From an uncultured Chloroflexia bacterium (GTDB lineage Bacteria > Chloroflexota > Dehalococcoidia > Dehalococcoidales > RBG-16-60-22), in contig CAWCLJ010000004.1 of the NCBI GenBank assembly GCA_963796365.1, forward strand, positions 1,162,519 to 1,226,518: 64,000 bases of DNA. The letters run 5' to 3'. The translations under genes and the position numbers were made by a program. The notes under the pieces were generated by a model. That model worked only from the letters and a program-made list of their open reading frames with translations, did not search any database and was not told where the DNA came from. Shown here one piece after another: positions 1 to 64,000 of this stretch. How positions within the stretch are numbered: the first letter of the stretch is position 1; every line of letters starts with the position of its first letter.

Positions 1-202
1 TGGTTTGGGTGGGCTTCACCGTATTTATCGGGGCTATCGTATTTTACGCGAGGAGTCGGGGGAAAAGCGGGGAACAGGTAAAAATAGGGTGGCCTAACCG
101 GATTATGATGCTTACCTACCTGGCGTGGCTTGTTATAATAGCCCGGGCGGTTTGGTAACCGGGAAAGTTACAGGGTCCGCCGGTGCAAATCCAACCGCCG
201 CG

Positions 203-970
203 CTATTCGTGTAAGAATTGCAACAGGTCCATCGGATGCTGAATAAGCGCTTTTGCCCCTCCGGCGAGTAGTTCTTCCGCTGTACGGAAACCCCATAATG
301 CCCCGATGGGAAACATTTTCGCGGCAACCGCTGTCTGCATATCGGTAGCTGAATCACCCAGGTAAAGAAATTCGCCGGGCTTTATTTTCATCTGCCGCGA
401 TATTTGCAGCGCGGCTGAAGGGTCCGGTTTTAACGGAATGCCGGGCTGTTCCCCCTGCACGCTCTCAAAATGCCAGCGCGGTAAAAGTCTGGAGACCATT
501 ATTTCCGCCGGTTTCTGCGGCTTGTTGGAAAGGATGGCCATGCGGATGCCCGAGGTAGTCAGGGCGTCCAGTAATTCCGGTATACCCGGATAAGGCAGAG
601 TGTGTTCCGACCATTTTCTTGAATACGTTTCATCTATTTGAACGGCTGTTTTTTCCACCGTCGCCGGGTCGCGCCGGTCTTCCGGGAGCGCTCTGGATGC
701 CAGGACCCTGATGCCGTTACCGACAAAATAGCGGTAGGCTTCGACTTCGTGCTGCGGAAAGCCTGACCCGGCCAGGACATCGTTTGCTGCATCAGCCAGG
801 TCGCGGAGGGTATTTAAAAGAGTTCCATCGAGGTCAAACAGTACTGCCCGGTATACCACATTTAATATCTTAACATATCCTTTGACTTTGTCCGATAATC
901 TTATAGCGGACTTTAATGTTTTTATCGAATTAGCCTGCCTGAAACACGGCGGGCTTTTTTCCCCCATCAA
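203..970 (-). CDS. HAD-superfamily hydrolase, phosphoglycolate-phosphatase-like
   Basis: HAD motif I 'VLFDLDGTLLNT' and late motif 'YLGDSATD'. The first ~37 codons of the ORF look non-coding; GTG at 859, just before the DxD motif, is the more likely start. Confidence 0.8.
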   Translation of the reverse strand: MMGEKSPPCFRQANSIKTLKSAIRLSDKVKGYVKILNVVYRAVLFDLDGTLLNTLRDLADAANDVLAGSGFPQHEVEAYRYFVGNGIRVLASRALPEDRRDPATVEKTAVQIDETYSRKWSEHTLPYPGIPELLDALTTSGIRMAILSNKPQKPAEIMVSRLLPRWHFESVQGEQPGIPLKPDPSAALQISRQMKIKPGEFLYLGDSATDMQTAVAAKMFPIGALWGFRTAEELLAGGAKALIQHPMDLLQFLHE

Positions 971-1086
971 TTAGCACCCTTATCGTTTTTTAATGAAACC
1001 CCCAATTAGAGCTATGAAGATAACAGGTTTTCCCTAAGTGAGATTTACTATTGTCATCGGGCAAATATGTTCGGAAACTATAATCA

Positions 1087-1737
1087 GTGAACAAATTGCG
1101 CCAATCCATCCGGAAATATTTCCATCAGCCTAAAGCCATTATCCTGCTGGCTTCCACCGGCATAGGCATCCTTTTCTTTTGGCCGGTAACTTATATTTCA
1201 GAAATTCTGCACCAGCATTATGACCCGGTAAATAATACCGTCAGTCAGCTTCTCATAGGTCCGGGCAGTAATATCGAGCAGGCGGCTTTTCTCATCGTCG
1301 GATTTTTTGTCATCGTTTTCACCATCGGTCTGAACGCCTATATCAGACCGCCTAAAAAGAATACGTTTTACGCCGGCCTGATACTCATGATAATCGCGGG
1401 GCTGGCGGTATGTGCCATGGCATTTTCACCGCCGGAAAGCCCGGTTCACTCCGGAACAAAGCATGTTTTACTTGCGGTTACCACGCTCATGTTTTTCCCG
1501 GCTGCCTGCCTGCTCCTGGCCCGGCAGTTCCGGCATGAAGGCTGGCACGGGATAGCAATTTATACCCTGGTTGCAGGGCTGGCTGGCGCCGGTTTATGCG
1601 CCGCTGAAGCTTTTACGCCTGACAGGTGGCTGGGATTGGTGGAAAGGCTTGTAATAGCCAATGGGATGCTATGGTTCGGTATTATGGGCCTGTTTATGAT
1701 TTACCGTGTTTTAAAGATGGGGCTGAAAACCGCTTGA
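1087..1737 (+). CDS. multi-pass membrane protein, DUF998-like
   Basis: 216-aa hydrophobic ORF. 'YDPVNNTVSQL...G' resembles the Y-P-x4-ISxL start of DUF998 proteins. Paralogous to 3213-4088. Confidence 0.5.
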   Translation: MNKLRQSIRKYFHQPKAIILLASTGIGILFFWPVTYISEILHQHYDPVNNTVSQLLIGPGSNIEQAAFLIVGFFVIVFTIGLNAYIRPPKKNTFYAGLILMIIAGLAVCAMAFSPPESPVHSGTKHVLLAVTTLMFFPAACLLLARQFRHEGWHGIAIYTLVAGLAGAGLCAAEAFTPDRWLGLVERLVIANGMLWFGIMGLFMIYRVLKMGLKTA

Positions 1738-1881
1738 GCCCGGGTTGGTTTGCCCGATCCAGTATCAGCAAATGCAACAACAATGTAACTAATTCCGCGC
1801 GTGTTTTATAACTTCTTCATAAATCCGACTCTAGAATCGAAAGATGGGGATAGCCCCAAAAAAAACAATGGAGGGTAAATT

Positions 1882-2778
1882 ATGGGTTTCATTAATGTCG
1901 GCAAGGAGAATTCAACAAGCATCGATCTTTATTATGAGGACCACGGCATGGGAAAGCCGATCGTGCTGATACACGGCTGGCCGCTTAGCTCGGCGTCCTG
2001 GGAGAAGCAGCTTCATCCTTTGCTCGAGGCGGGTTACCGGGTAATAGCTTACGACCGCCGCGGGTTCGGGTATTCCAGCAGACCTTCGATGGGCTACAAT
2101 TATGATGTCATGGCGGAAGACCTGCACAAAATCATGACCAAACTCAACCTGCACGATGTAACGCTGGTAGGATTTTCCATGGGCGGCGGCGAGGTGGCGC
2201 GTTTTCTCGGTAAATACGGGTCCGACCGTGTAAGCAAGGCGGTTTTTATTTCGGCGATTACGCCTTTCCTGCTGAAGAAACCGGATAACCAGGAAGGCGT
2301 TGAAGGCAGCATGTTCGAAAGCATGCAGCAGGACCTTATGATGGACCGTCCGGCCTTCCTCACGAAATTCTTAAACGATTTCTACGATGTCGATATGTAC
2401 AAAGACAAACGGGTCACCGATGAAGTCCTGTGGCTTAGCTGGTACACCGGCGCTATGGCTTCCCCACTGGGGACGATAGAATGCGTCACCGCCTGGGGCA
2501 ACGATTTCCGGGACGACCTGCGGAAAATTGATATCCCCGCGCTTGTCATTCATGGCGATGCAGACCGGATTTGCCCTCTGGCGGCTTGCGGAAAGCGAAT
2601 GCCGGAGTTTGTTAAGGACTGCAAACTGTCCGTCATCAATGGCGCGCCGCACGGCATGAACTGGACGCATGCGGAAGAGATGCATAAAGAGCTAATGGCT
2701 TTCCTTAAGGAAGAAAGGCCGGTGAGAAAAGATAAGGTAAGAGTCGGCGCGAACTTGAACATGAATATGAATAAATAA
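1882..2778 (+). CDS. alpha/beta hydrolase, non-heme haloperoxidase/esterase family
   Basis: 'IVLIHGWPLSSASWEKQ', nucleophile elbow 'GFSMGGGEV' and C-terminal 'HG..W' are typical of this family. SD 'GGAGGG' lies upstream of the ATG. Confidence 0.85.
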   Translation: MGFINVGKENSTSIDLYYEDHGMGKPIVLIHGWPLSSASWEKQLHPLLEAGYRVIAYDRRGFGYSSRPSMGYNYDVMAEDLHKIMTKLNLHDVTLVGFSMGGGEVARFLGKYGSDRVSKAVFISAITPFLLKKPDNQEGVEGSMFESMQQDLMMDRPAFLTKFLNDFYDVDMYKDKRVTDEVLWLSWYTGAMASPLGTIECVTAWGNDFRDDLRKIDIPALVIHGDADRICPLAACGKRMPEFVKDCKLSVINGAPHGMNWTHAEEMHKELMAFLKEERPVRKDKVRVGANLNMNMNK

Positions 2779-2806
2779 AAAGCCCTGACAATTGGATATA
2801 AGACGA

Positions 2807-4088: not shown

Positions 4089-4170
4089 TTCACTAAATTG
4101 ACGCCGGAGAGAGGGCAGGGGGAAAATATTTTTCAATCGTGGGGCAGCTTCAATTTGTGACAAAATACTA

Positions 4171-4200
4171 TTGACATGATTAGAACACCAGTGCTAATAT
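4171..4200 (+). promoter_or_regulatory. near-consensus promoter with extended -10
   Basis: TTGACA (4171-4176), an 18-bp spacer, then TGcTAATAT (4192-4200). It reads into the tandem repeat array. Confidence 0.6.
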
Positions 4201-4267
4201 AGGCTGTCAAGAGAAACGAAGATGGATAGGTGTGAACGTGAGACAACTATGAGAAATTCGATTCCAA

Positions 4268-4480
4268 CATTATGTTATTTCAGGCTTGACCCAGGCGTGA
4301 TTCGTTTTTCAGGGGTATTATGGAAAGCTAATCTCGCATCAGGCGTGAATCGTTTTTTAAGGGTATTATGTTAAATCAGGCTCGGTCCAGGCATAAATCG
4401 TTTTTTTGACATATTATGGTAAGCCTAGATACGATTCAGGCTCAAGGGCCTTTTTCAGGGTAGTTATGGTAAGTGATAGT
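4268..4480 (+). repeat. 48-bp tandem repeat, about 4.3 units
   Basis: Unit starts at 4268, 4316, 4364, 4412 and 4461. Conserved cores are TATTATGG, CAGGC and CGTTTTTT; the rest is degenerate. Confidence 0.85.
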
Positions 4481-4741
4481 GGATAGTGAATAGTGAATAG
4501 GGTTGAGGGTTAAGGGTTGAGGGGTGAGAAAAACTTCAAACTCTAAATCCTAAAACTCTAAACAAGCACGAAATACGAAGCTCGAAGCACGAAAGCCCCA
4601 CCACAAACCATTCCGTCCCCCGTATCGCAGTACGGGTTCAACCTGGTTCCACCGAGGTCACCACGAGGTGAACGGTTCACCGTGAACGGGGCAGGCTTGC
4701 AACGGTATGGTTACGGGTGGGTGATAACCCATCTTACTACA

Positions 4742-4870
4742 TTATTTCAGGACAGCGCGGACAAGGCGGATAACGCACTCTTCATCCAAAGAGGGCAGGC
4801 CCAAGTGAGCGCCGGCCAGGCCGATGGGCGAGACTCTTTCTCCGGTGCTACCGAGCGTGCGGTAAGTCAT
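4742..4870 (-). pseudogene. aldo/keto reductase, N-terminal 42-codon fragment
   Basis: Translates to 'MTYRTLGSTGERVSPIGLAGAHLGLPSLDEECVIRLVRAVLK*', a typical AKR N-terminus. The reading frame then ends in repeat modules. Confidence 0.6.
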
Positions 4871-4992
4871 GGAATTTTCAGGATATTTAAACCGGAGGGT
4901 TTTAAGATTAGGGGAGAATACTTATAAAGGTTAGACTGAACGAGAAAGGAAGGTAGGTATTTGCGGTAAATAATTTTAGTGGATTATGTATC

Positions 4993-6672
4993 TTAAGGAA
5001 TTTTATTTTCATATACGTAATCGTATAAATTCCTAGCTTCTAGGTTGTTATTTTCAGCAAGTATTTGTGCTAAATATGAAGTCGATAAGGTAAGATTAGC
5101 ATTGTCTTTTGCAAACTGACGTATTTTTGCAAGTAATTGTTTTCCTTCAGATAAAGTATGCCTTTTTGAGGCATCATTCCATATTAGATCAAATTTTGGC
5201 TTTATTTCTTCATAAACGGTATAAAATTCTTTACCTTTTGCAATAGGCGAAAATTTTATAGTTGCTTGTACATATTTTATTAGAGTTGGTTCATGTAACT
5301 CGTTATAAGTTGAATTTAAGAAATCTAAAAAGAGATTACGCAATTGTTGTGGAAATATCGATAATAATAAATCTTGTTGAAGAAAAATATTTTCAAATTC
5401 ATGTCCAGGTGTGAACGTTGTCCTAATCCCATTTCTTAAAAGCTCAATTGAAATTTTCTCAAGATAATCACCTGGATAAAAATCTTTGTCTAATAATAAA
5501 GAAAAAGAAGGTTCTTTTGCAAAGAACATTTTGTAAGCATTTTTATACGAAGAACAATCTTGCCACTTATTCAAGCCGAAAATTGGAATGTTATGAGTAC
5601 GAACAGATGAACCAAAGGCCTTAGCAATTTGTGTCAATAATGCATAGTCTTGAACATTCTCAGTAAAAATTATTCTCTCTACATCCTCAAATTGCGAGGC
5701 CACAAGATTAAATGAACTACCTATATCTTGGCGAATTTCCTCTAGACGATCTCTATTTTGAGTTGGTGTTGGTTTTGAAATATTGATTCCGCGTTTTATA
5801 TGTAAAATATGACTGAAATCAACCTCATTCATTAATTCAGAGGAATGTGTTGCAATTATCATTGAACCGGTAAAATATTCACGGAAGGTCTGTATCATAA
5901 TATGTTGCATTTCAGGATGTAAGAATATTTCAGGTTCATCTAATACTATTGTAGAACAATAAGAAAGTCTGACGAGATGGGTCATGAGTTGTAGCCAAAT
6001 TTGGAAACCTTGACCAGCGTAAGAAATTTCTCCCGTAATATTTCTTTCGGTAAAGGGACAATAAAGAATGTTTGTAGAACGATCATGTCCGACATCTCCG
6101 AGTATAGTTCTATTCCATGTTTCATAAATAATATTTTTTACTAATTCTCGTTGCTCGGGAGTTAGAAGTTGATATATATGATTTCTAATATGTAAAGGAG
6201 CTAATGAAGTATTTAAATGACTAAGAATATGGTCCCTACTTAAAAGTGCTTCCTCTTCGCGGATTTGACCTAATGGAGGCATAAACCCTAAAAGTGATTT
6301 AAGTGATGAAGGAGAATAAGCAGGTAAATTACATATAACCTGTTCCTTCTCACTATCAATATGAACTATTATTTCACGGCCGTTATCAAGTTCTGCCTGA
6401 ATTTCTGCAATACCATCTTGAAAACCATGGATTAGTCTGCGTAAATTTAAATCCTTAAGGTCACTAGCGTACAGTTGATGTTCAACCTCTCGGGTAGTTC
6501 CTTTTGCAAATCTAAAAGAATTTTCAAGCAATCTAAGCGCACGAAGAAGAGAACTCTTTCCAACATTATTCTTCCCTGTTATTAGAACGAATGCTTGATT
6601 GTCAGTAGGAAATTCAAATTCGTGACTAGAGTATGGACCAAAATTTTGCAAAATTATCCGTTGGATTTTCAT
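4993..6672 (-). CDS. ABC-type ATPase fused to TOPRIM/DUF4435-like domain (OLD-family / PARIS-like nuclease candidate)
   Basis: Start 'MKIQRIILQNFGPY' at 6672. The listed ORF extends upstream only because it reads into the IS. Walker A 'GKNNVGKS', 'YAGQGFQ', Walker B 'IVLDEPEIFLHP', 'ATHS'. C-terminal 'IIFTENVQD' and 'LLLDKDF'. Strongly AT-rich. Confidence 0.7.
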   Translation of the reverse strand: MKIQRIILQNFGPYSSHEFEFPTDNQAFVLITGKNNVGKSSLLRALRLLENSFRFAKGTTREVEHQLYASDLKDLNLRRLIHGFQDGIAEIQAELDNGREIIVHIDSEKEQVICNLPAYSPSSLKSLLGFMPPLGQIREEEALLSRDHILSHLNTSLAPLHIRNHIYQLLTPEQRELVKNIIYETWNRTILGDVGHDRSTNILYCPFTERNITGEISYAGQGFQIWLQLMTHLVRLSYCSTIVLDEPEIFLHPEMQHIMIQTFREYFTGSMIIATHSSELMNEVDFSHILHIKRGINISKPTPTQNRDRLEEIRQDIGSSFNLVASQFEDVERIIFTENVQDYALLTQIAKAFGSSVRTHNIPIFGLNKWQDCSSYKNAYKMFFAKEPSFSLLLDKDFYPGDYLEKISIELLRNGIRTTFTPGHEFENIFLQQDLLLSIFPQQLRNLFLDFLNSTYNELHEPTLIKYVQATIKFSPIAKGKEFYTVYEEIKPKFDLIWNDASKRHTLSEGKQLLAKIRQFAKDNANLTLSTSYLAQILAENNNLEARNLYDYVYENKIP

Positions 6673-6820
6673 AATATTTGACAAAGTATAAAACAAATAA
6701 ATAGGACAGTCAAGAAATAAAAATCGTTCATAACGCTTAAGATATACAAAAATCTCGTTTATTCTAAAAGCTAAATCATTATTTGTCAGTCCCCTCCTAG
6801 CCATATACGTAACCGAACCA

Positions 6821-8183
6821 GAGGTTCCGTCAATAGGTGTGTAAATGTCAGGCGACGGCAAGTACCTCCTCCTGTTTGATTTCTCCCGGGCCCAGGCTTT
6901 CGATACCCAGGTAAACTTCCTGTAATATCTCCGGTGCATCCAGCTTTCTGAATCGCTGCTCGGCAATCAAAAGCATCTTCCAGGTTACTGCCGTAGCGTT
7001 GGCCACTTTCTTAAAGCGCTTGGCCGCATCGGTCCGCAGTCTCAGAGCGGCGAAGGGCGATTCGACCGGGTTGGTGGTTCGAAGATGCTTCCAGTGCTCC
7101 TTCGGGAACCGATAAAAGGTCACCATCCGCTCCCAGTCATGCTCTAGTGCCGCGGCGGCCCGGTCATAGCCTTCTTTCCGGCACCAGCGGACGAAGTGGT
7201 CGCGCTTAACTTCGGCTTCCTCGCGGTCTGCCGAGTACACAATTCCCTGTAATTCATTCTTAGCATTGCCTTGTGCCTTCTTCGGTAACTTATCCAGCAC
7301 GTTTCGCACTTTGTGATTCCAGCAACGCTGCTCCAGCGCATCGGGAAAGACAGCATTCAAGGCTCCCCAGATGCCCAGGTGACCATCGCCCACTACCAGC
7401 CGGGGACAGTTCAGACCGCGTCCTTTGAGGGAACGCAACAGGTCGGACCAGCTTTCGGTAGATTCGCGATACCCGGGCTCCACCGCCAGGATCACCTTCC
7501 GCCCATCGCTTAATGCGCCGATCACCACCAGCAGCGCCGCCTTAGTTTTCTCCAGACCAGCCTTGATGTATACTCCGTCAACCCACATGTAGACCAGTCT
7601 CAGACCTTTGAGACTGCGCCGCCGCCACTCTTCCCATTCAGCTTGCCAGCTCTCCTTGAGTCGGGCTATCGTACTGGCGGAGATGGGCGCCTCTTCTCCC
7701 AACAGACCCCGTAGCGCCAGGTCAAAATCACCTTGCGCCAGACCGTGCAGGTAAAGCTGTGGTAAAAGCTGATTTACCTCTTTCGTCCTTCTGGCGAACA
7801 ACGGCAATACCCGGCTCTTGAAACGCTCCGCCAGACCTCTGACCCTGGGCCGGCGCACGGTAATGGTCCCACAGCCCAGCGTTAGCCTTCGCCGCTTGCC
7901 GTAGCCATTCCGGTACGCCCGCGAAGCATCCAGTCCCTCGCGCCGCTCGGACTTGCCGCGCCCCAACAGCTCTGTTATTTCATCTTCCAGTAGAGCCTGG
8001 ATGAATTCCCTCACCTTCACCCGCACCATCTCTTCGAGATAATCCCAGACTTTACTTGACGACTCCGGCTTCCCTGTGGTTTGCTTTCCCATGGTGGTGG
8101 GTACCCTCCTTCTGTTTGTTTCATCACTAACAGAAAGGGTACTCGCTGCCGCTAACTATTTCCACACTTTTTGATGATACCTC
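6821..8183 (-). mobile_element. IS256-family insertion sequence, apparently intact
   Basis: Imperfect terminal inverted repeats (GAGGTTCCGTCAATAGGTGTGTAAATG... versus the reverse complement GAGGTATCATCAAAAAGTGTGGAAATA...). 8-bp direct target duplication CCGAACCA at 6813-6820 and 8184-8191. Confidence 0.9.
6848..8092 (-). CDS. IS256-family (mutator-type) transposase
   Basis: 414-aa ORF with 'VYMWVDGVY', 'VVGDGHLG' and 'RCWNHKVRNVL' blocks characteristic of Transposase_mut. Confidence 0.9.
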   Translation of the reverse strand: MGKQTTGKPESSSKVWDYLEEMVRVKVREFIQALLEDEITELLGRGKSERREGLDASRAYRNGYGKRRRLTLGCGTITVRRPRVRGLAERFKSRVLPLFARRTKEVNQLLPQLYLHGLAQGDFDLALRGLLGEEAPISASTIARLKESWQAEWEEWRRRSLKGLRLVYMWVDGVYIKAGLEKTKAALLVVIGALSDGRKVILAVEPGYRESTESWSDLLRSLKGRGLNCPRLVVGDGHLGIWGALNAVFPDALEQRCWNHKVRNVLDKLPKKAQGNAKNELQGIVYSADREEAEVKRDHFVRWCRKEGYDRAAAALEHDWERMVTFYRFPKEHWKHLRTTNPVESPFAALRLRTDAAKRFKKVANATAVTWKMLLIAEQRFRKLDAPEILQEVYLGIESLGPGEIKQEEVLAVA

Positions 8184-9644: not shown

Positions 9645-9871
9645 CATCAATTGGCAGGGGGTAAGTATCAATTGCCAAGTATCAAGTATCAAGGAAGTGA
9701 TAAGTGATAATCGTTAAATGATTAACCCCCTCCCCGAACCGATATCCTTCGCCAGGCTCAGGATGACAAAGGAGGGGAAGATTGATTATAAACAGAGATA
9801 CATGAGTTTGGCCAGTCATCCTCTCCCTTTGGTAAAGGGAGAGTAAGAGAAGGATTTTGAGTAAAAAATAA

Positions 9872-11947
9872 ATGGACCATCACCCTCAAGAAGAAAAGTC
9901 AGCCGCCAGCTTTGCATTTATACCCGCCATAGTTTCCATGGGGTCCGCCCGGGTTTCCTGCGGCACCCGCTTTATCGTCTCCGCCGATAACGGGGACATC
10001 GTTCCCCGGGAGCGCCACCAGGGTTTTTACGCGCATGATACGCGATTTCTTTCCCAGTTCACCGTTACCGTTAACGGAAAAAGGCTGAACAACGTCGGCC
10101 GTGCCACCTTCGAAGACCGGCTGGCGAGCTTTTACTGCACGGTCGGGCAGATGAGCATCGTGCGGGACCGGAACGTCTCCCAGGTTTTCCATGAGGACAT
10201 CAGCATTACCAATAACGGGATTCACCCGGTAAACGTAAACCTGGAGATTGCGCTGGGGGCGGACTTCGCCGATGTGTTCGAGGTGCGGCGTGGCACGGTA
10301 CATAAAGCCGGTAATATTACGCTGGAACAGTCCGGGCCGGAAGGGCTGACCCTTGCTTACCGGAGGGGAAATTATTTAAGGGAGACCAGAATCCGGTTCA
10401 ACACGCCGGTAGAGATGAAGGGCAACGTGGCCCATTTTGAATTTCAATTAATGCCGAAAGACATCTGGCGGACGTGCATCGATATCAGCCCGGTGATGAA
10501 CAGTCACGAACACCAGGCATCAGCGTGTGTCAGCGAGATACTGGGCAAGCCCTTCGGCAACTACCAGGACAAGACCTATCTGGGTTTCTTCCAGGAGGTC
10601 GAGACGGGGATGCCGCTGGAAAAAGTGCCTTCCATCAAGACCGATAACCCGGACCTGGCGCAGGCTTATCACCGGGCCGTGGGCGACCTGCGGGCGCTGC
10701 GCCTGCCGCAGCGAAACGGGTATTATGTGCTGGCGGCCGGTCTCCCCTGGTTCATGGCATTATTCGGGCGGGACTCCATCATCAGCGCCATGCAGACCAA
10801 GATACTCGGGCCGGAACTGATGGTCGGCACGCTGCATACACTTGCGAGTTTGCAAGCCACCGGGTTCGATAAATTCCGCGAGGCGGAGCCGGGCAAAATC
10901 ATCCATGAAATAAGGCGGGGGGAGCTTTCGCTCTTCGGGAATGTGCCGCATACCCGGTATTACGGCAGCGTGGACGCCACGCCGCTCTTTATCATGCTCT
11001 TATGGGAAGCCTACCGCTGGACCGGCGACGTTAAAATACTGGAAGACATGCTGCCTTACGCCGAACTGGCGATGGGCTGGATCGAAAAATACGGGGACGT
11101 GGATGAAGACGGCTTTACGGAGTACCGGCGGCGCATCAGCAAGGGGCTGATCAACCAGGGGTGGAAGGACTCTTACGACTCAATATCCTTTAACGACGGC
11201 ACCCTGGCGCGCGGGCCGATAGCTTTATGCGAGGAGCAGGGGTATGTTTATGCCGCCAGGAAAAGCCTGGCATCCGCCAATGAAGTCCTCGGCAACTTTA
11301 AACGCGCCGATGAGCTATTAAGCGGCGCCGAAAAATTAAAAAAACAGTTCAACCAGGCTTTCTGGATGCCGGAACATGATTATTACGCCATCGCGCTGGA
11401 CGGGAAAAAGCAACTGGTCGATGCCATTTCTTCCAACCCGGGGCACTGCCTCTGGACGGGCATCGCGGACGATGACAAGGTGGCAAAAGTGGCGCAGCGG
11501 CTGACAGCCCCGGACATGTTCGCGGGGTGGGGCGTGCGGACGCTTTCTTCCGAGGCGAAGCGGTACAATCCTCTTTCCTATCATAACGGCAGCATCTGGC
11601 CCCATGATAATTCCATCATCGCGGCGGGCTTAAGGCGATACGGGTTTTACCAGGAAGCGGCCAAAATAGCCATGGCTGTCATCGAGGCAACGGCCGTTTT
11701 ACCGTCCCACCGCCTCCCGGAACTGTATGCCGGCTATACGCGGCGCGCCTATTCTTTTCCCGTCCCTTATCCCGCCGCCAACTCCCCGCAGGCATGGGCA
11801 TCCGGCTCGGTCATTTATTTCATGGAGACGCTGCTGGAGATAACGCCGGAAAACGAGCAGCTTGTTTCCGGCCCGCTGGTAAAAGCCAACCCGATGTTTA
11901 TTTTAAACGGGGTGCGCTACAAGGATAAAAAGCAGGCACTGCCGTGA
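9872..11947 (+). CDS. amylo-alpha-1,6-glucosidase / glycogen-debranching-like (GDE_N_bis + GDE_C) protein
   Basis: 691 aa. N-terminal 'GFYAHDTRFLS' and C-terminal (alpha/alpha)6-type blocks 'GLPWFMALFGRDS', 'GWKDSYDS', 'YHNGSIWPHDN'. Confidence 0.8.
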   Translation: MDHHPQEEKSAASFAFIPAIVSMGSARVSCGTRFIVSADNGDIVPRERHQGFYAHDTRFLSQFTVTVNGKRLNNVGRATFEDRLASFYCTVGQMSIVRDRNVSQVFHEDISITNNGIHPVNVNLEIALGADFADVFEVRRGTVHKAGNITLEQSGPEGLTLAYRRGNYLRETRIRFNTPVEMKGNVAHFEFQLMPKDIWRTCIDISPVMNSHEHQASACVSEILGKPFGNYQDKTYLGFFQEVETGMPLEKVPSIKTDNPDLAQAYHRAVGDLRALRLPQRNGYYVLAAGLPWFMALFGRDSIISAMQTKILGPELMVGTLHTLASLQATGFDKFREAEPGKIIHEIRRGELSLFGNVPHTRYYGSVDATPLFIMLLWEAYRWTGDVKILEDMLPYAELAMGWIEKYGDVDEDGFTEYRRRISKGLINQGWKDSYDSISFNDGTLARGPIALCEEQGYVYAARKSLASANEVLGNFKRADELLSGAEKLKKQFNQAFWMPEHDYYAIALDGKKQLVDAISSNPGHCLWTGIADDDKVAKVAQRLTAPDMFAGWGVRTLSSEAKRYNPLSYHNGSIWPHDNSIIAAGLRRYGFYQEAAKIAMAVIEATAVLPSHRLPELYAGYTRRAYSFPVPYPAANSPQAWASGSVIYFMETLLEITPENEQLVSGPLVKANPMFILNGVRYKDKKQALP

Positions 11948-15782: not shown

Positions 15783-15789
15783 TTTTCAG

Positions 15790-20382: not shown

Positions 20383-20394
20383 CGCCGCCCCTCC

Positions 20395-53544: not shown

Positions 53545-53553
53545 CCGCCCTAA

Positions 53554-53700: not shown

Positions 53701-53722
53701 GAGCAGGAGCGGAGGCGGATTC

Positions 53723-54271
53723 GTGATTTCAAATACTAACCTTTACGCCGTCGCCCTGACTTTTCCCGGGGAGCCGGAAATACTTTTAAGCAAGCTCCGC
53801 GAGCCGTTCCGTCCCCACATGCATTACGCTTTCCTTCCCCATATCACGCTGGTATATCCCTTCGCGCCTGCCCGCGATATTGAAGATGTCATTGCCCGGC
53901 TGGAAAAAGTGGCCGCTGGAACCCGTCCGTTCCGGCTGACGCTGGAAGGCATCAACTATTTTCAAACGGTTAATAATGTAGCTTACATCGCGATAAAAGA
54001 CAGAGAACCGGTCAATATCTTGGCTTTGAATATCGTGCAATCAATTAAAGACGTTATCACCGGTTACTACGCCGAGATGGAATATGACTACACCCATTAC
54101 ATTCCTCACATGACCATCGGGGAAAAGATACCGGCGCATATCTTCCCGGAGGTAAAAAAGCACTTTACTGATTACCAAATCCACCAAGAAGTGGATGTCA
54201 CTTATTTTTCCCTCGCCGGTGAGAATAACGGACTGTGGGAACAGTTGAGGACGTTTAAGTTTAAAGGATAA
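53723..54271 (+). CDS. 2H phosphoesterase / LigT-like protein, paralog 2
   Basis: 'PHITLVYPF' and 'PHMTIGEKI'. The listed ATG at 53684 lies inside the repeat block; GTG at 53723 is an alternative start. Confidence 0.75.
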   Translation: MISNTNLYAVALTFPGEPEILLSKLREPFRPHMHYAFLPHITLVYPFAPARDIEDVIARLEKVAAGTRPFRLTLEGINYFQTVNNVAYIAIKDREPVNILALNIVQSIKDVITGYYAEMEYDYTHYIPHMTIGEKIPAHIFPEVKKHFTDYQIHQEVDVTYFSLAGENNGLWEQLRTFKFKG

Positions 54272-54461
54272 AGACATCACATTCTTCTCCCTTGCGGGGA
54301 GAAAAAACATCGGGTTAATCCAACGGCTATCCCTTATTTTTATTCTCCCCCAAGAGGCGAGAATAAATTGGTAGTTTAACTTTGGGTACTGTAAACTAGT
54401 AACAAGAAATTAGTAACTTTCATCCAGAAAGCTCTTCATGCACAAACTCCTTTTAATTGAC

Positions 54462-54610
54462 GGCAAAATCCTCTTTATATCCTCCCTTGAAAGGGAGGAC
54501 AACTAATCGGCTGTTAAATGACGATTAATGCGCGAGAGGCTAACTTCGTCTCCCCTTTTAAGAGCCTGCCCCGTACCGCGATACGGGGGGAGATGAGAGA
54601 AGGATTCGTG
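54462..54610 (+). repeat. ~148-bp composite intergenic block, copy 2
   Basis: See 53554-53700. It ends with the same ..GAGATGAGAGAAGGATTCGTG context in front of the DUF559 gene. Confidence 0.8.
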
Positions 54611-54982
54611 ATACCTTATAATAAAAACCTCGTAGAATTAGCCAAAGATTTAAGAAACAACATGACGAAGGCGGAGAAGTGCCTTTGGACAAGAATCAAA
54701 TCAAAATCTTTGGGGTATGCTTTTTTCAGACAAAGGCCGATAGGAGAATATATCGCGGATTTCTATTGCCCGAAAGCATTTCTCGTGGTTGAGGTTGATG
54801 GCGAACGGCACCTTATGAAAGACGTAATAGAAAACGATAGTGTAAGAGACGAATATATGCATAGCCTTGGTTTAACTGTATTCAGGTTCTCAAACATAGA
54901 AGTGCTGGAGAATACCGATAAAACCGTAGAAAAAATCTACAAGTTCTTAGATAATAAATCCAAACCGGGAAGTATTGCGTGA
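54593..54982 (+). CDS. DUF559 (Vsr-like) endonuclease-domain protein
   Basis: 'LRNNMTKAEKCLW', 'FRQRPIGEYIADFYCPKAFLVVEVDG..H', 'D..RDEYMHSLGLTVFRFSN'. The start is uncertain (54518, 54593 or GTG 54608). Confidence 0.75.
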   Translation: MREGFVIPYNKNLVELAKDLRNNMTKAEKCLWTRIKSKSLGYAFFRQRPIGEYIADFYCPKAFLVVEVDGERHLMKDVIENDSVRDEYMHSLGLTVFRFSNIEVLENTDKTVEKIYKFLDNKSKPGSIA

Positions 54983-55767: not shown

Positions 55768-56363
55768 CTGCCAGCCTTTAGCTATCGGCTTTCAGTCCCC
55801 CCTGCCCCTTTTCCCCTTTTCCCCGCTCATCCTGAGCTTGTCGAAGGATATCATGCTGTAGGAGTCCTTCCGCTTTTAGTGAGCTATAGTTTACCTTGAG
55901 CGAAGTCGAAGGGAACTATCGGAAGAACGGCGAAGCATCTCAGGGCGGCGGGGTAATTATTCCTTAATTCTAAAATGTCCTCCCCACCCTGATATCCTTC
56001 GTCCGCCTGCGGCGTCCTCCAGGATGACAAGAAATATTATTTTACTCGTAACCTGGCTTCAATTTTTGACAAAATCCCCTTTACAACCTCCTCTCAACAC
56101 TACTATACTGAAAGCTGAAAACTGACTACTGATAAATCACTTGCACCTTTACAAATCAACAAAAATCGAATTATTTAGCAAGACAAAATATTAGTAAAAC
56201 ACAGCTAAATTAACATAATATATGGGAACGAATAACCGGACGAATCAGCTTCGGCCCAAAGTTAACTGGGTAAAAAATTGCTGAAAAAACGAATCGAATA
56301 AAAAGAGGTGGTCGGGTGGTGTAACTGTATACCGTAAACTGTTAACTCCACCAGGAGCAGCAT

Positions 56364-57047
56364 ATGGCAGATGTAAAAATCAAAGTAGCGGCGGTTATCG
56401 TCGCGGCGGGGGATAGCCAGCGCATGGACGGCATGGATAAAATCCTGGCCTGCATCGGCGGCCGGCCCGTCCTGGCGCGCGTCCTGGATACTTTCCAGAA
56501 TTGCGATAAGGTAGAGCAAATCATTGTCGTTATGAATTCCAAAAATCTCGATGAAGCCAAACAGCTTATTGCCAAAGAGAAGAAATGGAACAAGGTCACC
56601 GATGTCGTCGTCGGGGGAAAACGGCGGCAGGACTCGGTTATCGAAGGCCTGAAAAAACTCAAGACCTGTGAATGGATTGTTATTCACGATGGCGCCCGTC
56701 CCCTCATGCGCGCCGAGCTTATCGAAAAAGGCCTTGAAGCCGCCAAAGAGACCGGCGCCGCCGCCCCGGCCGTCCCGGTAACGGACACCATCAAATTTAT
56801 TAAAGACAGCGATCTCGTGGTGCAGACCCTTCCTCGCCAGAATCTAAGAGCCACCCAGACCCCGCAGGTCTTCCGCTTCGATGTTGTGCAGAACACCTAT
56901 AAATTTACCCCCGGTGAGTATACCGATGATGCCTCGCTCGTGGAAAAAGCCGGTTTTAAGGTTAAGCTTTTCCCGGGTGCTCATGATAACATTAAGATAA
57001 CCACCCCGGATGACCTCGCCATCGCCGAAATTTTACTGAAATATTAA
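56364..57047 (+). CDS. ispD: 2-C-methyl-D-erythritol 4-phosphate cytidylyltransferase
   Basis: 'AVIVAAGDSQRM', 'VVGGKRRQDSV', 'VIHDGARP', 'TQTPQVF'. Confidence 0.9.
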   Translation: MADVKIKVAAVIVAAGDSQRMDGMDKILACIGGRPVLARVLDTFQNCDKVEQIIVVMNSKNLDEAKQLIAKEKKWNKVTDVVVGGKRRQDSVIEGLKKLKTCEWIVIHDGARPLMRAELIEKGLEAAKETGAAAPAVPVTDTIKFIKDSDLVVQTLPRQNLRATQTPQVFRFDVVQNTYKFTPGEYTDDASLVEKAGFKVKLFPGAHDNIKITTPDDLAIAEILLKY

Positions 57048-57050
57048 AAA

Positions 57051-57155
57051 AGAGAGTCCAGAGAGACTAGTCTCTTTGGCGGGGGCTCCGGGGGTGTCCC
57101 CCGGCTTCTTCTCTTCCCGGGGAGGGGAAAAGGAGTGGGGCATCAGGATTTAGAG
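57051..57155 (+). repeat. family-A triple-hairpin element, copy A5
   Basis: AGAGAGTCCAGAGAGACTAGTCTCTTTGGCGGGGGCTCCGGGGGTGTCCCCCGGC..GGGGAGGGGAAAAGG..GGATTTAGAG, located between ispD and ispF. Confidence 0.8.
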
Positions 57156-57202
57156 TTTTCTTCACTTGTTATTTATTTAAAGAGGCATAAACAGGAATTG
57201 TT

Positions 57203-57676
57203 ATGAGAATTGGAAATGGATATGATGTCCACCCGCTCGTCCCGGGGCGGAAACTGGTGCTGGGCGGCGTGGAAATCCCTTTCGATAAAGGCCTTGAGGG
57301 CTGGAGCGATGCCGATGTCCTTACTCATGCCGTCATGGATGCCCTCCTCGGCGCCGCGGCTTTAGCGGATATCGGTCACCATTTCCCGCCCGGCCACGCC
57401 GATTATAAGGATATCTCCAGCCTCAACCTGCTTAAAGAGGTTGTCAAGAAGCTGGGGGAAAAGGGCTACCGGGTGGGAAATATAGACGTTACCGTGGTGG
57501 CGGAACGCCCCAGGCTCCGTGAATATATCGATGATATACGCGCTCTTTTAAGCAAAACGATGGGAATTGACATGGATAAAGTTAGCGTTAAAGCCAGCAC
57601 CAGCAATGGCCTCGGCTTTATCGGTAACGGGCAGGGCATTGCCGCCTATGCAGTGGCGCTGATAGAAGAGAAGTAA
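57203..57676 (+). CDS. ispF: 2-C-methyl-D-erythritol 2,4-cyclodiphosphate synthase
   Basis: 'MRIGNGYDVHPL', 'SDADVLTHAVMDALLGA', 'DIGHHFP'. Confidence 0.95.
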   Translation: MRIGNGYDVHPLVPGRKLVLGGVEIPFDKGLEGWSDADVLTHAVMDALLGAAALADIGHHFPPGHADYKDISSLNLLKEVVKKLGEKGYRVGNIDVTVVAERPRLREYIDDIRALLSKTMGIDMDKVSVKASTSNGLGFIGNGQGIAAYAVALIEEK

Positions 57677-57777
57677 ACACTACACAGTAGACAGTAAACG
57701 GTTGGTGGGATGGGGAGGAGGTACCGTTGATAAAAACTGTTAACTGTAGACTATAAACTATTGAAAAAGGAACAATT

Positions 57778-60678: not shown

Positions 60679-60869
60679 CTCGCACCTCCTTATGCTTTCC
60701 TTGCCTAGCAGAGTAACAAAATTGAAGCTATTTGTCAATAGCTGCAGGCTCAAAAATAGTCACTAATTTTAGCCAAAAAGTATAAAAAATGGGGGAAAAG
60801 CCTGGTTAAAATGGGCTTAAAGCAGGTAAAAAATACGTGTTTTACTATTAGTGCTGAGCCTTAGTGAAA

Positions 60870-61067
60870 CTATTGAAGGACGATGAAAATAACGACCAGG
60901 ACGATGGTAAGCTGGAAGAGGGTTTTTTCCACGCCCCGCTTGGTGCGGTAGACCGTATCCGCCTGCCCGAAGATGCCGCCCAGCCCGCCGCCCTTTACCT
61001 GGAGCAAGGATACGACGATCAGGGCTACCGCCACGACAATCTGCGCAATATATAAATAATTTATCAT
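60870..61067 (-). CDS. secG: preprotein translocase subunit SecG
   Basis: 'IVVSLLQVKGGGLGGIFG' and two TM segments. Confidence 0.85.
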   Translation of the reverse strand: MINYLYIAQIVVAVALIVVSLLQVKGGGLGGIFGQADTVYRTKRGVEKTLFQLTIVLVVIFIVLQ

Positions 61068-62548
<1,481 letters not shown>

Positions 62549-62635
62549 ATGTATTTCAGTTCAAAGACAACATTTCCAGTATAGCAACAATAGCGTTGGA
62601 GCGTGACAAGATATATGGAGACAGCCTGTAATTTA

Positions 62636-62644
62636 TGCTATAAT
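62636..62644 (+). promoter_or_regulatory. extended -10 element in front of the tRNA fragment
   Basis: TGcTATAAT ends 14 nt before the first tRNA nucleotide. Confidence 0.5.
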
Positions 62645-62658
62645 TTTTACGTTACTGC

Positions 62659-62705
62659 GGGGCCGTAGTTCACTCGGGAGAACGTCGCGTTTGCATCGCG
62701 CAGTC
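62659..62705 (+). pseudogene. tRNA-Ala(UGC) 5' fragment (acceptor 5' strand, D-arm, anticodon arm only)
   Basis: GGGGCCG-TA-GTTC-ACTCGGGA-GAAC-G-TCGCG-TTTGCAT-CGCGC. No T-arm or 3' acceptor strand follows; the sequence turns AT-rich instead. Confidence 0.7.
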
Positions 62706-63796
62706 AAGACCTAATGTACATTCCGGGCTATATGTCAACCAATCTCAAATTTCCAATTGTACAAAACTAAAATCCGAAAAAGTCTCAATAACAAAGACCA
62801 TCAAAAAATGCACTCGTCTTATTTAAAAGCATTCATGATCTCGACAATGCTCTTTTATATGTAATACCACTATATATATGAAATACCATATATTGGTACC
62901 TTTATATGAAATTTCCTGTAATCATTAATCAAGTGAGTGTATTTACCTTATCCCCTATGGCCCCCTTTTCCCTTCTTTTACAAAACAAATGGGCGAAGAA
63001 GACTCAGGACAAACTACAATCCAAATTTACAAGTATATCTATCATTCTATTTAAACGCTTGCTACCCCTTATAAAATCCTTCTACAGGGCTTCTCGTAAT
63101 CATTTAAAACACCAACTACATTCTAAACATTTAAATTTTTTCCAATACTTCAAAACTTCCCAAGAAATTTATCCAAAAAAACATGACTTTATTGACCTTT
63201 TTACCCCCTTCTTTTATCCTTTTTTTATACCCTCTGTGACATTTTTGATACTATTAATCAAGGGGCACTCCGGTGCGGCTGGGGCCGCTGCCGGAGTGGC
63301 GCCGACCATCCGAAACCGTCACCGCCTTTTTATTCTTTTTATATAAACTTTTTTTTACCTGCCAATCATTGCAAGACTTAATCAAGACGGCTATCAAAAT
63401 CAACATACTATTTTCAAACCTGAGAGAATTAATATACGTAGTCAAGTAATATAGTCGGCAGGCTTTCGGCCTCGGCGCCGACCGAGTCATCAAAGCCTTT
63501 CTCCAATCTTTTCTCAAACCGTCACTACACAACATATAATCAAAAAAAAGAGGGACTTATACACTAAACGTATAAATCCCTCTGAAATGCCAACCTTTAA
63601 CTAAAAGGCCATGTGTGTTAAGGTTCTCGCACACATTAAATGGCGTGATACTTCAAAACTGATGCGCATTAGTTTTATACCAGTACCGCAACCCTTACAT
63701 ATTAACTTTTTATGATACCCTCCATGATGTCAACTAAATCATACTTTTTATGTAAAAGTTTATCGATATCATTACATTCTAACTGCTAAAAAATTT

Positions 63797-64000
63797 TCAC
63801 TTTTCTTCCATTATCTTCTCTATCCTCACAATCAATATAGACAATACAATTGTGTAAATACCGATCAACATTAATAATATTGGTCTGTCTATATAAGGAA
63901 ACACATAATTTTTTATCAAAATCCAATTCTTAATAAAGTCAAATACACCTGAAAGAGTAATAATAGCTCCTAATGCAATTCCAACTTTAGCATTATTCTC
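63797..64000 (-). CDS. C-terminal part of a hydrophobic protein, 5' end outside the window
   Basis: Open frame from the window edge reads '..IALGAIITLSGVFDFIKNWILIKNYVFPYIDRPILLMLIGIYTIVLSILIVRIEKIMEEK*'. AT-rich. No family recognised. Confidence 0.35.
   Translation of the reverse strand, partial: ENNAKVGIALGAIITLSGVFDFIKNWILIKNYVFPYIDRPILLMLIGIYTIVLSILIVRIEKIMEEK

Follow-up and report, generated by a model that had tools for sequence, protein, structure and literature searches.

Mosaics of short hairpin-forming repeats in the intergenic DNA of an uncultured Dehalococcoidales bacterium

What kind of DNA fills the spaces between the genes of an uncultured Chloroflexota bacterium of the order Dehalococcoidales, and do its recurrent hairpins travel as mobile units or serve the transcripts that carry them? 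We address this question in a stretch of 64,000 nucleotides (nt) of contig CAWCLJ010000004.1 (assembly GCA_963796365.1, positions 1,162,519 to 1,226,518 of the forward strand), called the window below. An initial annotation had described its intergenic DNA as drawn from a common stock of small hairpin modules and 7-nt repeats in varied order and orientation, and such a stock is indeed present. Our analysis suggests that about 60% of the spacers are probably patchworks of short dispersed repeats that are non-coding and form hairpins, of the type called repetitive extragenic palindromes (REPs), bacterial interspersed mosaic elements (BIMEs) or miniature inverted-repeat transposable elements (MITEs). 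The families are REPs with a CGTC head, one GTAG-like REP, CTCTCCC hairpins, a ~95-nt composite element, heptamer elements and arrays, and a promoter module. REPs have been known for 40 years. The initial annotation called the architecture much denser than ordinary REP usage, which goes too far for a stretch of 64 kb; we find no new architecture but a mosaic resembling REPs, BIMEs and REP doublets forming hairpins (REPINs), combined with heptamer repeats of the short tandemly repeated repetitive (STRR) type described from cyanobacteria, and the general phenomenon is known.

Shared modules in the intergenic DNA

Our own gene calls leave 16.6 kb (26%) of the window as non-coding DNA. Perfect hairpins (stem of at least 7, loop of 3–8) number 36 in this fraction against 6.4±1.4 in dinucleotide shuffles, a ~6-fold enrichment, and show no excess in coding DNA (14 against 17.5±6). 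Non-coding DNA also holds 1036 of the 1245 repeat bases detected by self-BLAST (83%), and 29 repeated words of at least 15 nt were counted in the window, compared with 1–5 in shuffles. Tandem arrays with a self-match of at least 80% have a period of 7 (n = 6) or 8 (n = 1), with none at periods 4–6 or 9–12 and none in coding DNA. A short significant match to a different spacer was found in 25 of 40 spacers (~22 of them convincing), as opposed to 1–4 (about 2) in shuffled spacers, so that the earlier statement that nearly every spacer longer than 100 bp reuses the modules was too broad. Sharing is seen in all three convergent spacers, 16 of 29 tandem ones and three of seven divergent ones, a pattern that agrees with the location mostly after genes given for REPs in the published description (PMC3733652).

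All hairpins listed in the initial annotation were recovered at, or within a few bases of, the places given for them, including five CCCCGTA..TACGGGG hairpins (4617, 18598, 23499, 53653 and 54562), both GGATTCCCGAT..ATCGGGAATGAC hairpins (39332 and 46332; 30 nt, two differences), seven C/T-rich hairpins of the CTCTCCC..GGGAGAG type and both ACAGGCG..CGCCTGT hairpins; the heptamer arrays were likewise all detected with Tandem Repeats Finder (TRF). Some of the groupings change on closer comparison. The GGAACGAATAACCGG module is a two-copy 15-mer without extended similarity, and about three such pairs per window are expected by chance. Members of the GTCATYCTGAG..GAAGGAT group are present but heterogeneous, the one at 51320 being a clean CGTC-type palindrome and the one at 37387 having a different head. 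TTGAGATT and some other supposed microsatellites are present, not as free microsatellites but as copies of a ~65-nt element that is dispersed and has fixed ends. Modules do vary in order and orientation, but they are not freely combined equals, since small cassettes are nested in the loops of larger hairpins, and some of those that recur between spacers are probably ordinary promoters.

The closest loci that we retrieved belong to metagenome-assembled genomes (MAGs) of Dehalococcoidia, at 62–74% nucleotide identity. These matches, together with the set of genomes that have modules in common with the window, point to Chloroflexota, class Dehalococcoidia, as its probable source. Three syntenic metagenome contigs (L116–L118) carry genes 78–91% identical to those of the window, and run ERR10755942 contributes two short contigs of the same strain (L001 and L362). 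Modules recur in the relatives L116–L118, L230, L112, L086, L090 and L091, some of them also in other phyla, and with this recurrence the reservation that they might be peculiar to the window falls.

At orthologous positions, the content of spacers changes quickly. Between ispD and ispF, the window and L116 (IspF 92% identical) have a 155-nt spacer with the composite element, L117 (91%) and L118 (82%) have a palindrome of heptamer arrays instead, and a P0009 contig (85%) has 8 nt only. The spacer at 20383–20394 comprises 12 nt in the window, made up of a stop codon, a ribosome-binding site (RBS) and a start codon, whereas L230 has ~195 nt there, with a heptamer element, a CTCCCTC hairpin and a CGTC REP. 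Such rapid turnover argues against a site-specific function. Intragenomic copies are 95% identical over 61–75 nt, which exceeds the identity of orthologous genes to the closest relatives; judged from these comparisons, the copying of modules within the genome appears to be recent.

CGTC REPs, a nested 24-nt hairpin and heptamer arrays

CGTC REPs are defined by a CGTC or TGTC head, a stem of 8–9 bp starting with A–T pairs, a loop of 4–5 nt and a CCA tail; they have been reported in Proteobacteria, Chlorobi, Bacteroidetes, Spirochaetes and Thermotogae, include Neisseria dRS3 and Rickettsia RPE-4/RPE-6, and have no known dedicated transposase (PMC3733652). In the window, the head reads TGTC at 39358–39361 (−), 46358–46361 (−), 46249–46252 (+) and 51427–51430 (−), and CGTC at 53638 and 54547; variant heads are CGCC (51320) and AACC/GACC (12078 and 39801), the published variants being TGTC and CCTC (PMC3733652). 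ATTCCCGA(T), ATTCTGAC and ATTCCGTA form perfect stems of 8–9 bp, the loops are TCTAA, TCCAA, GAAG, CTTGA and CCAGA except for 28-nt loops in the copies at 46247 and 51378, and CCA ends all seven clear copies, as it does 133 of 279 CGTC-like matches across all loci. By head, stem, loop and tail, the seven window copies belong to the CGTC REP superfamily. Within its 64 kb the window has these seven clear copies and about four degenerate ones, and the relatives L230 and L076 carry such REPs too. The resemblance to the published families extends to their intergenic position mostly after genes, their pairing, the lack of a transposase and their presence in distant phyla. The window copies differ in that the published phyla do not include Chloroflexi, that pairs are tail-to-tail where head-to-head is the described rule, and that a subset has structured loops of 24–28 nt, for which the paper has just ‘loops of different length’ (PMC3733652). 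For Dehalococcoides, too, RepRanger has given counts of REP-like palindromes (PMC12306157).

Comparison of ‘empty’ and ‘filled’ hairpins brings out a discrete 24-nt hairpin, YCTG-CCCCGTA-YCGCRR-TACGGGG, which sits as a cassette at the junction of the loop and the 3′ arm of host hairpins. Aligned with the empty copies of the ~65-nt heptamer element at 18886, at 51428, at 39040 (reverse complement) and in L230, the copy at 18562–18650 is longer by exactly 24 columns. Similarly, the host hairpin CGTC-TCCCC-TTTTAAG-GGGGA is filled twice in the window (53637–53700 and 54546–54609) and empty in L118 (4701–4745). The cassette at 23499 forms a composite with a CTCTCCC hairpin that is also found in other Chloroflexota, with 81–89% identity over 61–74 nt to L083, L004, L058 and L065. 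Among the REPs, 26 nt of the module at 12078–12131 are 100% identical in L086 and L090, with a filled version in L033, and the degenerate copy at 37109–37167 is homologous to filled REPs of JAUYDN01 (L076, L033 and L092). The long-loop ‘type B’ architecture of 46247–46301 recurs in JACPPR01, JAUYDN01 and the Candidate Phyla Radiation (CPR).

We scanned species-representative genomes for the CCCGTAYCGCRRTACGGG hairpin and obtained more than 100 loci, with a pattern so degenerate that it also matched coding palindromes in Streptomyces and Methanoculleus. The 25–29 nt around 54561–54589 are 100% identical in Dehalococcoidia and other Chloroflexota, Burkholderiales (Ottowia, Pelomicrobium, Methylotenera), CPR/Patescibacteria, Nitrospirae, Deltaproteobacteria (Smithella, Syntrophaceae) and Binatia, and in most of these the cassette lies within a lineage-specific CGTC REP. 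In CAZGTK01, an empty REP reads CGTC ACCCCGGC GGAG GCCGGGGT CCAG and a filled one CGTC ACCCCGGC GGAG / CCTGCCCCGTACCGCGATACGGGG / GCCGGGGT CCAG; empty and filled REPs with identical stem and tetraloop also coexist within one genome in DATIUV01, JAUYDN01 and Binatia. A tetraloop also seen among 59 empty REPs is retained in 16 of the 22 filled type-A REPs, and the modal loop of 28 nt equals 4 + 24 nt. In 12 type B REPs the hairpin has the other orientation and is followed by TAAACTCC, with loops of 28 nt in 11 and 30 nt in one. For hairpin occurrences with an outer stem of at least 8 bp, the cassette lies immediately 5′ of the host 3′ arm on whichever strand, its blunt end facing the arm (offset 0–2) and its 4–5-nt tail facing the loop.

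The heptamer repeats include the dispersed ~65-nt element (TTGAGATT), also present in L118 and L230, and tandem arrays. Several spacers are imperfect palindromes with heptamer arrays as their two arms, in which the 5′-nearer arm is A/C- or purine-rich, the other arm is G/T- or C/T-rich and hairpin modules occupy the centre. Simple local alignment, applied to spacer-wide palindromes, picked up only local hairpins. With arm-against-arm alignment measured against composition-preserving shuffles, the inverse symmetry of spacer ends was significant in four of six cases and marginal in two, and four control spacers were negative. The arms 38960–39035 and 39880–39956 gave z = 3.7, the spacer 57677–57777 gave z = 4.6 and the ispD–ispF spacer of L117 gave z = 3.3; the arrays at 11945–12072 form the left arm of a ~420-nt imperfect palindrome (fold z = −3.95, arm alignment z = 3.7). 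We found no description of heptamer-armed palindromic spacers in the open-access literature.

A related kind of repeat, TAACTGA in direct copies, is intergenic in Beggiatoaceae, Cyanobacteria and Bacteroidetes, with a patchy distribution across phyla and no evident transfer mechanism (MacGregor 2015, PMC4679880). The arrays of the window are like STRR and TAACTGA repeats in their strict 7-nt period, in having 2–8 copies, in being intergenic and, for some, in lying a few nucleotides upstream of start codons. They differ in their many distinct units (GGGAATA, CTAAATC, AAGCACG, ACCAAAT, TTGAGAT), in that most follow stop codons, and in that several are part of a dispersed ~65-nt element or arms of spacer-wide palindromes (PMC4679880). 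Intergenic 7-nt arrays of the published type are present, but exact TAACTGA occurs only twice in the window, and the main arrays there have other units and come after stop codons. Arrays of related units (AACTGAC, TAACTGT, CTGAAAG) stand at 30744–30795, 56100–56140, 56328–56358 and 57734–57768, and at 6910–6945 in L118, partly just upstream of start codons (cysS, ispD). HIP1, GCGATCGC, is absent from the window, and a cyanobacterial origin was rejected on this ground.

How closely do these mosaics resemble established systems? E. coli REPs and BIMEs and the REPINs mobilised by REP-associated tyrosine transposases (RAYTs) are similar in their clustered small palindromes, which build composite extragenic mosaics and in E. 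coli have conserved linker motifs, in hairpins like the ends of IS200/IS605 elements, in near-identical intragenomic copies and in larger hairpins formed by inverted pairs (PMC3333891, PMC2817692, PMC3116915). The window modules, in contrast, have no sequence similarity to E. coli Y and Z REPs, a GTAG-like head with a G+C-rich stem occurs in a single copy (39372–39396), no RAYT gene lies in the window, and there are far more unrelated module families per spacer than in E. coli, with heptamer arrays as palindrome arms. As regards BIMEs, the window has tail-to-tail REP pairs with ~30-nt spacers at 46247–46361 and 51319–51432 and recurrent blocks of 75–93 nt; regular alternation and a shared linker set were not seen in it. 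As regards MITEs, spacer ends are inversely symmetrical in four of six cases, and the junctions in the filled/empty comparisons show no direct duplications. Membership in the GTAG/RAYT system, in the E. coli BIMEs or in the MITEs is not established.

Mobile repeats or elements of the transcripts

The modules behave as discrete units, which close relatives have gained, lost or replaced at orthologous positions. Their typical place is between a stop codon and the RBS or terminator that follows, several phyla have them in common, and within host hairpins the nested small cassettes keep to a fixed junction. In the explanation that we favour, they would spread as DNA through a trans-acting enzyme that recognises folded single-stranded hairpins. 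Candidates for this enzyme are a RAYT, an IS200/IS605-type HUH Y1 transposase or another REP-targeting recombinase, and hairpin loops would be preferred landing sites because they are single-stranded. RAYT/REP systems and IS200/IS605 elements provide precedents for spread via folded single strands (PMC3333891, PMC2817692). By analogy with REPs in E. coli, transcribed hairpins may in addition protect mRNA 3′ ends or separate cistrons; the repeats would need no function to persist.

A bolder possibility, which we put forward tentatively, is that the 24-nt hairpin is a cassette that inserts independently, at the loop/3′-arm junction of REPs and C/T-rich hairpins and into heptamer elements, mobilised in trans by an enzyme that acts on single-stranded DNA (ssDNA) and spread horizontally through at least six phyla including CPR with their tiny genomes, and that the nesting of such cassettes builds the mosaics. 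Insertion sequences (IS) that target REPs (IS1397, ISKpn1, IS621, ISPpu9 and ISPa11; Tobes & Pareja 2006, PMC1525189) likewise use REP hairpins as landing sites and one fixed REP position, but they are full elements of 1–1.5 kb with a transposase gene, whereas the window has a non-coding hairpin of 24 nt. The ‘peel and paste’ IS200/IS605 elements, palindrome-associated transposable elements (PATEs) and MITEs would be comparable in their recognition of folded ssDNA hairpins, insertion beside a short motif and lack of target duplication, and IS200/IS605-like chemistry would explain why target-site duplications are absent and why loops are preferred. IS200/IS605 elements and their miniature derivatives, however small, have a length of ~100 nt or more and depend on two subterminal hairpins. 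Mobility of a single 24-nt hairpin would, to our knowledge, be without precedent; if the hairpin does insert independently, it would be by far the smallest mobile unit known. The open-access literature yielded no account of the 24-nt cassette, of the fixed junction at which it lies or of its cross-phylum identity, nor of nested REP insertions or REPs in Dehalococcoidia, and a literature search with exact module sequences returned nothing relevant.

Several observations weigh against spread by transposition, and against an independent cassette in particular. Among the ~50 window ORFs compared with Pfam, none matched Y1_Tnp (RAYT, PF01797), the only transposase gene being of the IS256 family, and this genome is represented by 64 kb only. 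Junctions in the filled/empty comparisons show no target-site duplications, which fits HUH-type chemistry and proves nothing. Strain-level polymorphism was not found in the two same-strain contigs, L001 being identical and L362 having equal spacer lengths. As DNA, the spacers of L117 and L118 fold weakly (z = −1.4 and −1.9). Nested examples are abundant in loci that were selected by the cassette, which itself is abundant in some genomes only: among 126 metagenomic ATTCCCGA REPs, 19 have loops of at least 16 nt, several of them hairpins, with no exact cassette and about 0–1 of the CCTG type, and among 149 ATTCCGGC REPs from viral-collection contigs, 76% have tetraloops, none has a CCTG-type cassette and only two have 28-nt structured loops, both of type B with a covarying stem. 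Given this scarcity in unbiased samples, nesting is a general but minority state. Further, the cassette stem hardly covaries, 52 of 53 being CCCGTA, and gives no support to recognition by structure. Filled/empty pairs might in principle also result if the hairpin were precisely deleted or if an already-filled subfamily spread, and in the heptamer element the insertion lies at an identical point in the window and in L112.

Two narrower ideas about the cassette were discarded: recognition by structure only, since stems accompanied by the constant loop and tail are the same in 52 of 53 cases, and a phage vector as its main carrier, with only two exact matches in 2.9 M viral contigs. The stem variants are one CACTCGG..CCGAGTG and a related CCCGGA..TCCGGG form. 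Two Cloacimonetes loci (L064 and L067) have a palindrome AACCCT-CCCGTATCGCGATACGGG-AGGGTT flanked by CCCATAACCCT…AGGGTTATGGGAG with the same core, which may represent an unrelated REP family sharing CCGTA/TACGG.

Alternatively, the modules could be selected cis-acting RNA elements instead of mobile DNA, serving as stabilisers in 3′ untranslated regions, ribonuclease (RNase) sites or intercistronic insulators, with the heptamer arrays acting as platforms for RNA-binding proteins or as frame-independent stop-codon traps and the similarity of copies reflecting shared function. E. coli REPs stabilise upstream mRNA. In the window, half of the ten heptamer arrays start no more than 21 nt from a stop codon, three of them overlapping it; the commonest units carry TAG, TAA or TGA, which at a period of 7 places a stop codon in all three frames, and related arrays lie 15 nt before cysS and just before ispD. 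The stems of the composite element keep their pairing through double changes in six of 22 pairs. Several array units (AAGCACG, ACCAAAT), however, lack a stop codon whichever strand is read, modules may point with or against transcription and are found in divergent spacers too, and the orthologous spacers of close relatives hold wholly different modules or none. A search of the window with Rfam 15 returned only 5S rRNA above threshold, and no module matched any family even at E ≤ 1, the best sub-threshold score being 28 bits where the gathering score is 114. That 24-nt cassettes are identical in six phyla speaks for transfer and not for convergent function. We consider selection for such RNA roles an unlikely source of the modules.

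It is far less probable still that the hairpins are simply Rho-independent terminators or attenuators, which would naturally be enriched after genes and look alike. True terminators with T-runs exist at 2806–2831, 16191–16213, 30594–30633, 46380–46409 and 50213–50232, and modules do favour the downstream ends of genes. But a T-run follows only ~4 of the 36 perfect non-coding hairpins, terminator-like sites in 38–58 kb number 30 against 26.2±5.3 expected with only two convincing, modules lie inside operons such as ispD–ispF, and terminators do not show identity over 25–90 nt across loci and phyla. An artefact of composition or assembly (spacers of low complexity, palindromes arising by chance, or a chimeric or erroneous assembly that collapses repeats) might draw on signs of imperfect sequence in the window, namely gatB split over three frames and a degraded tRNA, and on the one listed module pair at chance level, but it deserves next to no credence and is already largely refuted, as the dinucleotide-shuffle controls are far exceeded, modules recur in assemblies made independently, among them isolate genomes (Ottowia beijingensis) and long-read chromosomes, and the same-strain short-read contigs agree with the window over the spacers they cover. 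Dispersed repeats spreading as DNA remain our preferred reading of the mosaics.

Further modules, neighbouring genes and implications

The coordinates of all modules are compiled in Table 1. CTCTCCC hairpins have a conserved 3′ extension (...GGGAGAG-TAAGAGAAGGATTTT) and are also present in L118, L091 and L230. The ~95-nt multi-hairpin composite, which the initial annotation had missed, has five copies in the window and occurs in L116 and L072 as well. A second mini-hairpin of ~16 nt, (G)TCCGCC-TGAG/TGC-GGCGGA(C), at 43853–43869, 49683–49699 and 55998–56020, lies in only two of the five composite copies, and it also occupies the loops of one GTCATCCTGAG module and one metagenomic ATTCCCGA REP. 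In its nesting it behaves similarly to the 24-nt cassette, and it too may insert independently.

A recurrent ~60-nt promoter-like module consists of GGCTTCAATTTNTGACAAAAT followed by TTGACA or TTTACA, 18 nt and TAnnAT, perhaps with a further copy at 54450–54482, and promoter-like sites in 38–58 kb number 45 against 20.9±4.4 expected. This module is probably a functional promoter and not a repeat element; it may be the promoter of the lineage with an upstream operator or UP element. Directly downstream of the strong promoter-like module at 4140–4205, a 48-nt unit (CAGGCGTGAATCGTTTTTTAAGGGTATTATG with a variable part of 17 nt) is repeated in tandem ~3.5 times at 4269–4435, each copy with a −10-like TATTAT.

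Table 1. Positions of REP-type, cassette, hairpin, composite, promoter-like and heptamer modules in the window.
Feature	Position	Strand	Remark
CGTC-type REP: TGTC / ATTCCCGA / TCTAA / TCGGGAAT / CCA	39332–39361	−	fits the definition of PMC3733652
CGTC-type REP, second copy, loop TCCAA	46332–46361	−	tail-to-tail pair with 46247–46301
CGTC-type ‘type B’ REP, 28-nt loop ending TAAACTCCG	46247–46301	+	95% identity to 51380–51440
Long-loop REP, second copy	51378–51432	−	tail-to-tail pair with 51319–51348
CGTC-like REP: CGCC / ATTCTGAC / GAAG / GTCAGAAT / CCA	51319–51348	+	
REP-like hairpin ATTCCGTA-CTTGA-TACGGAAT-CCAG and overlapping second hairpin	12078–12131	+	87% to second copy
Second copy of ATTCCGTA REP-like module	39801–39854	+	
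Degenerate CGTC REP with degenerate cassette in loop (...ATTACCGA / CCCCGTATCAAGTATGTGGCAGGC / TCTGA CCGGGAAT CCAG)	37109–37167	+	
GTAG-like REP (GTGG / GGCAGGC / CTCCGT / GCCTGCC), then ACAGGCG-TGA-CGCCTGT hairpin	39369–39420	+	
Cassette CCCCGTA-TCGCAG-TACGGGG-CATGC interrupting copy of ~65-nt heptamer element (18562–18650)	18597–18623	+	
Cassette AGCCTG-CCCCGTA-CCGCGA-TACGG in host hairpin CGTC-TCCCC-TTTTAAG..GGAGG (53637–53700)	53653–53678	−	
Second cassette copy in CGTC-TCCCC host hairpin (54546–54609)	54562–54588	−	95% identical over 75 nt to 53628–53702
Cassette copy with 1-nt deletion, adjoining CTCTCCC hairpin 23525–23560	23499–23524	+	
Cassette copy without CAGGC tail, end of heptamer array	4616–4637	+	
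Degenerate cassette-like hairpin CCTGCCCCGCACGACAATCGGGGG	33842–33867	−	
CGGCACAGGCG-GGGA-CGCCTGTGCCG hairpin, 11-bp stem	34046–34079	+	
GTCATCCTGAGC..GCGAAGGATATC module, TGTC head, imperfect stem	9739–9772	−	92% identity to 55827–55852
GTCATCCTGAGC..CGAAGGATATC module	55823–55854	+	L090 93%
GTCATCCTGAGC-type module with extra ~16-nt mini-hairpin (GTCCGCC..GGCG.C) in loop	55988–56032	−	
GTCATTCTGAG…GTGAGAATC module, inner GTCC-CGGAA-GGAC hairpin	39466–39508	+	
CTCTCCC hairpin: ATCCTCTCCC-loop-GGGAGAG-TAAGAGAAGGATTTT	9815–9862	+	within 93-nt block repeated at 39681–39773
CTCTCCC-family hairpin	24522–24566	+	95% identity to 39681–39702
Two CTCTCCC-family hairpins, 39679–39722 and 39755–39798	39679–39798	−	L091 92%
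Two C/T-rich hairpins: TCTCCCTCTC..GAGAGGGAGA, CCTCCTCTC..GAGAGGAGG	51190–51286	+	
Spacer with TTCTCCC..GGGAGAA and TCCTCCCT..AGGGAGGA hairpins	54279–54505	+	
Composite element with extra 16-nt hairpin TCCGCCTGAGGCGGAC	43819–43915	+	
Composite element, also with extra 16-nt hairpin, beside orphan 5S rRNA gene	49655–49752	+	
Composite element filling ispD–ispF spacer	57046–57160	+	conserved in L116
Composite element, partial	18690–18756	−	
Composite element, divergent copy	15706–15792	−	
CAACCCC(C)TGAATGAGGGTGAGTG module, with a second copy at 24043–24092	18645–18685	+	
Promoter-like module (GGCTTCAATTTTTGACAAAATCC…TTTACA-N18-TATACT), then CTGAAAG/AACTGAC heptamer array, upstream of ispD	56053–56140	+	
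Promoter-like module (TTGACA-N18-TATTAT, 11/12 matches)	39612–39670	−	
Promoter-like module (TTGACA-N18-TAATAT)	4140–4205	+	read from sequence
~65-nt heptamer-periodic dispersed element, empty form, directly 3′ of stop codon	18890–18956	−	
~65-nt element, left end of 1-kb mosaic spacer, inversely symmetrical with 39890–39950	38968–39034	+	z = 3.7, 0/300 shuffles
~65-nt element upstream of radA	51432–51506	−	
Heptamer arrays GGGAATA, CTAAATC, ACCAAAT, starting in stop codon of gene 9872–11947	11945–12072	+	
G/T- and C/T-rich right arm, complementary to 11945–12072	12268–12368	+	
Heptamer arrays GTGAATA, GGGTTGA, AAACTCT, AAGCACG; no right arm; beside low-G+C island	4467–4600	+	
Heptamer arrays TAGTGGA, CGAAGCA, starting in stop codon, then genuine terminator 50213–50232	50105–50190	+	
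ispF–cysS spacer: inversely symmetrical arrays CAGTAGA/CAGTAAA and AACTGTT/AACTGTA	57672–57768	+	z = 4.6
Heptamer arrays AAGTATC, AAGTGAT, 21 nt after stop codon	9660–9712	+	
GGGAATA array and TGAAAGC/TAACTGA-like array, convergent spacer	30637–30795	+	
GGGAATA-type array, divergent spacer	33776–33812	+	

The window has a G+C content of ~50%, and its ~50 ORFs compared with Pfam are ordinary chromosomal genes of a housekeeping segment, including katG, clpB, radA, ispD, ispF, cysS, gatB and speE/speH, a PHO4 phosphate transporter gene, one IS256-family transposase gene and, amid the housekeeping genes, a heliorhodopsin gene (25477–26244, −; PF18761, E = 4e-94). An island of low G+C (38%) at 4640–8100 holds a gene for an AAA_15/AAA_21 (OLD/AbiEii-like) ATPase (4993–6966, −) and the IS256-family (Transposase_mut) gene (6848–8092, −). 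It occupies the expected place of the right arm of the mosaic 4467–4637 and may have been inserted into that mosaic.

A composite element (49655–49752) flanks a lone 5S rRNA gene (49388–49505, −; 88 bits), which has no 23S rRNA gene nearby, and another separates two copies of a PMT-family glycosyltransferase gene, one of them a truncated paralogue (42472–44369; 44082–44330 is 73–76% identical to 43426–43674). A local rearrangement separates the window from L118: the gene order radA-ligT-ligT-DUF559-exo at 52945–54982 is radA-DUF559-ligT-ligT-exo in L118 (4299–5961), and in both the small DUF559 (Vsr-like endonuclease) gene has a CGTC-TCCCC hairpin element upstream, which suggests a small mobile cassette.

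Towards the right end of the window, gatB (60817–62548, −) is split over three reading frames. In tblastn with the intact GatB of L118 (483 aa), residues 1–213 align in frame −1, 111–337 in frame −3 and 339–483 in frame −2, which implies at least two frameshifts; the split gene is either a pseudogene or the product of assembly indel errors. A search of the window for tRNA genes found none. At 62650–62725, a degraded tRNA-Cys(GCA)-like sequence, on which ARAGORN makes no call, has lost its T-arm, and its 5′ two-thirds align to an intact tRNA of L118 (~13690–13765). It is followed by AT-rich DNA (62720–64000, 42% G+C) with few ORFs, and the two together may mark the junction of an integrated element.

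Modules also give rise to spurious ORFs and false N-terminal extensions. Three cases raised in the initial annotation are backed by alternative starts with an RBS, by Pfam and by paralogue alignment: 24447–24521 is a false N-terminal extension over a hairpin, the likely true start being the ATG at 24446 with its RBS; the ORF at 39372–39578 is a translation of REP modules; and 53684–53722 is a false extension, as the GTG at 53723 has a GGAGG RBS and fits the length of the paralogue. In Chloroflexota and groundwater MAGs, modules of this kind cause systematic annotation errors, in the form of false N-termini and ‘hypothetical proteins’ translated from repeats, and they break short-read assemblies; with a library of modules, annotators could mask them. 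Hosts with and without a 24-nt cassette that is identical across phyla offer a testable handle on which enzyme acts and whether the cassette is moved as ssDNA, and the rapid turnover of spacers within conserved operons such as ispD–ispF provides natural experiments on the effect of hairpins on expression.

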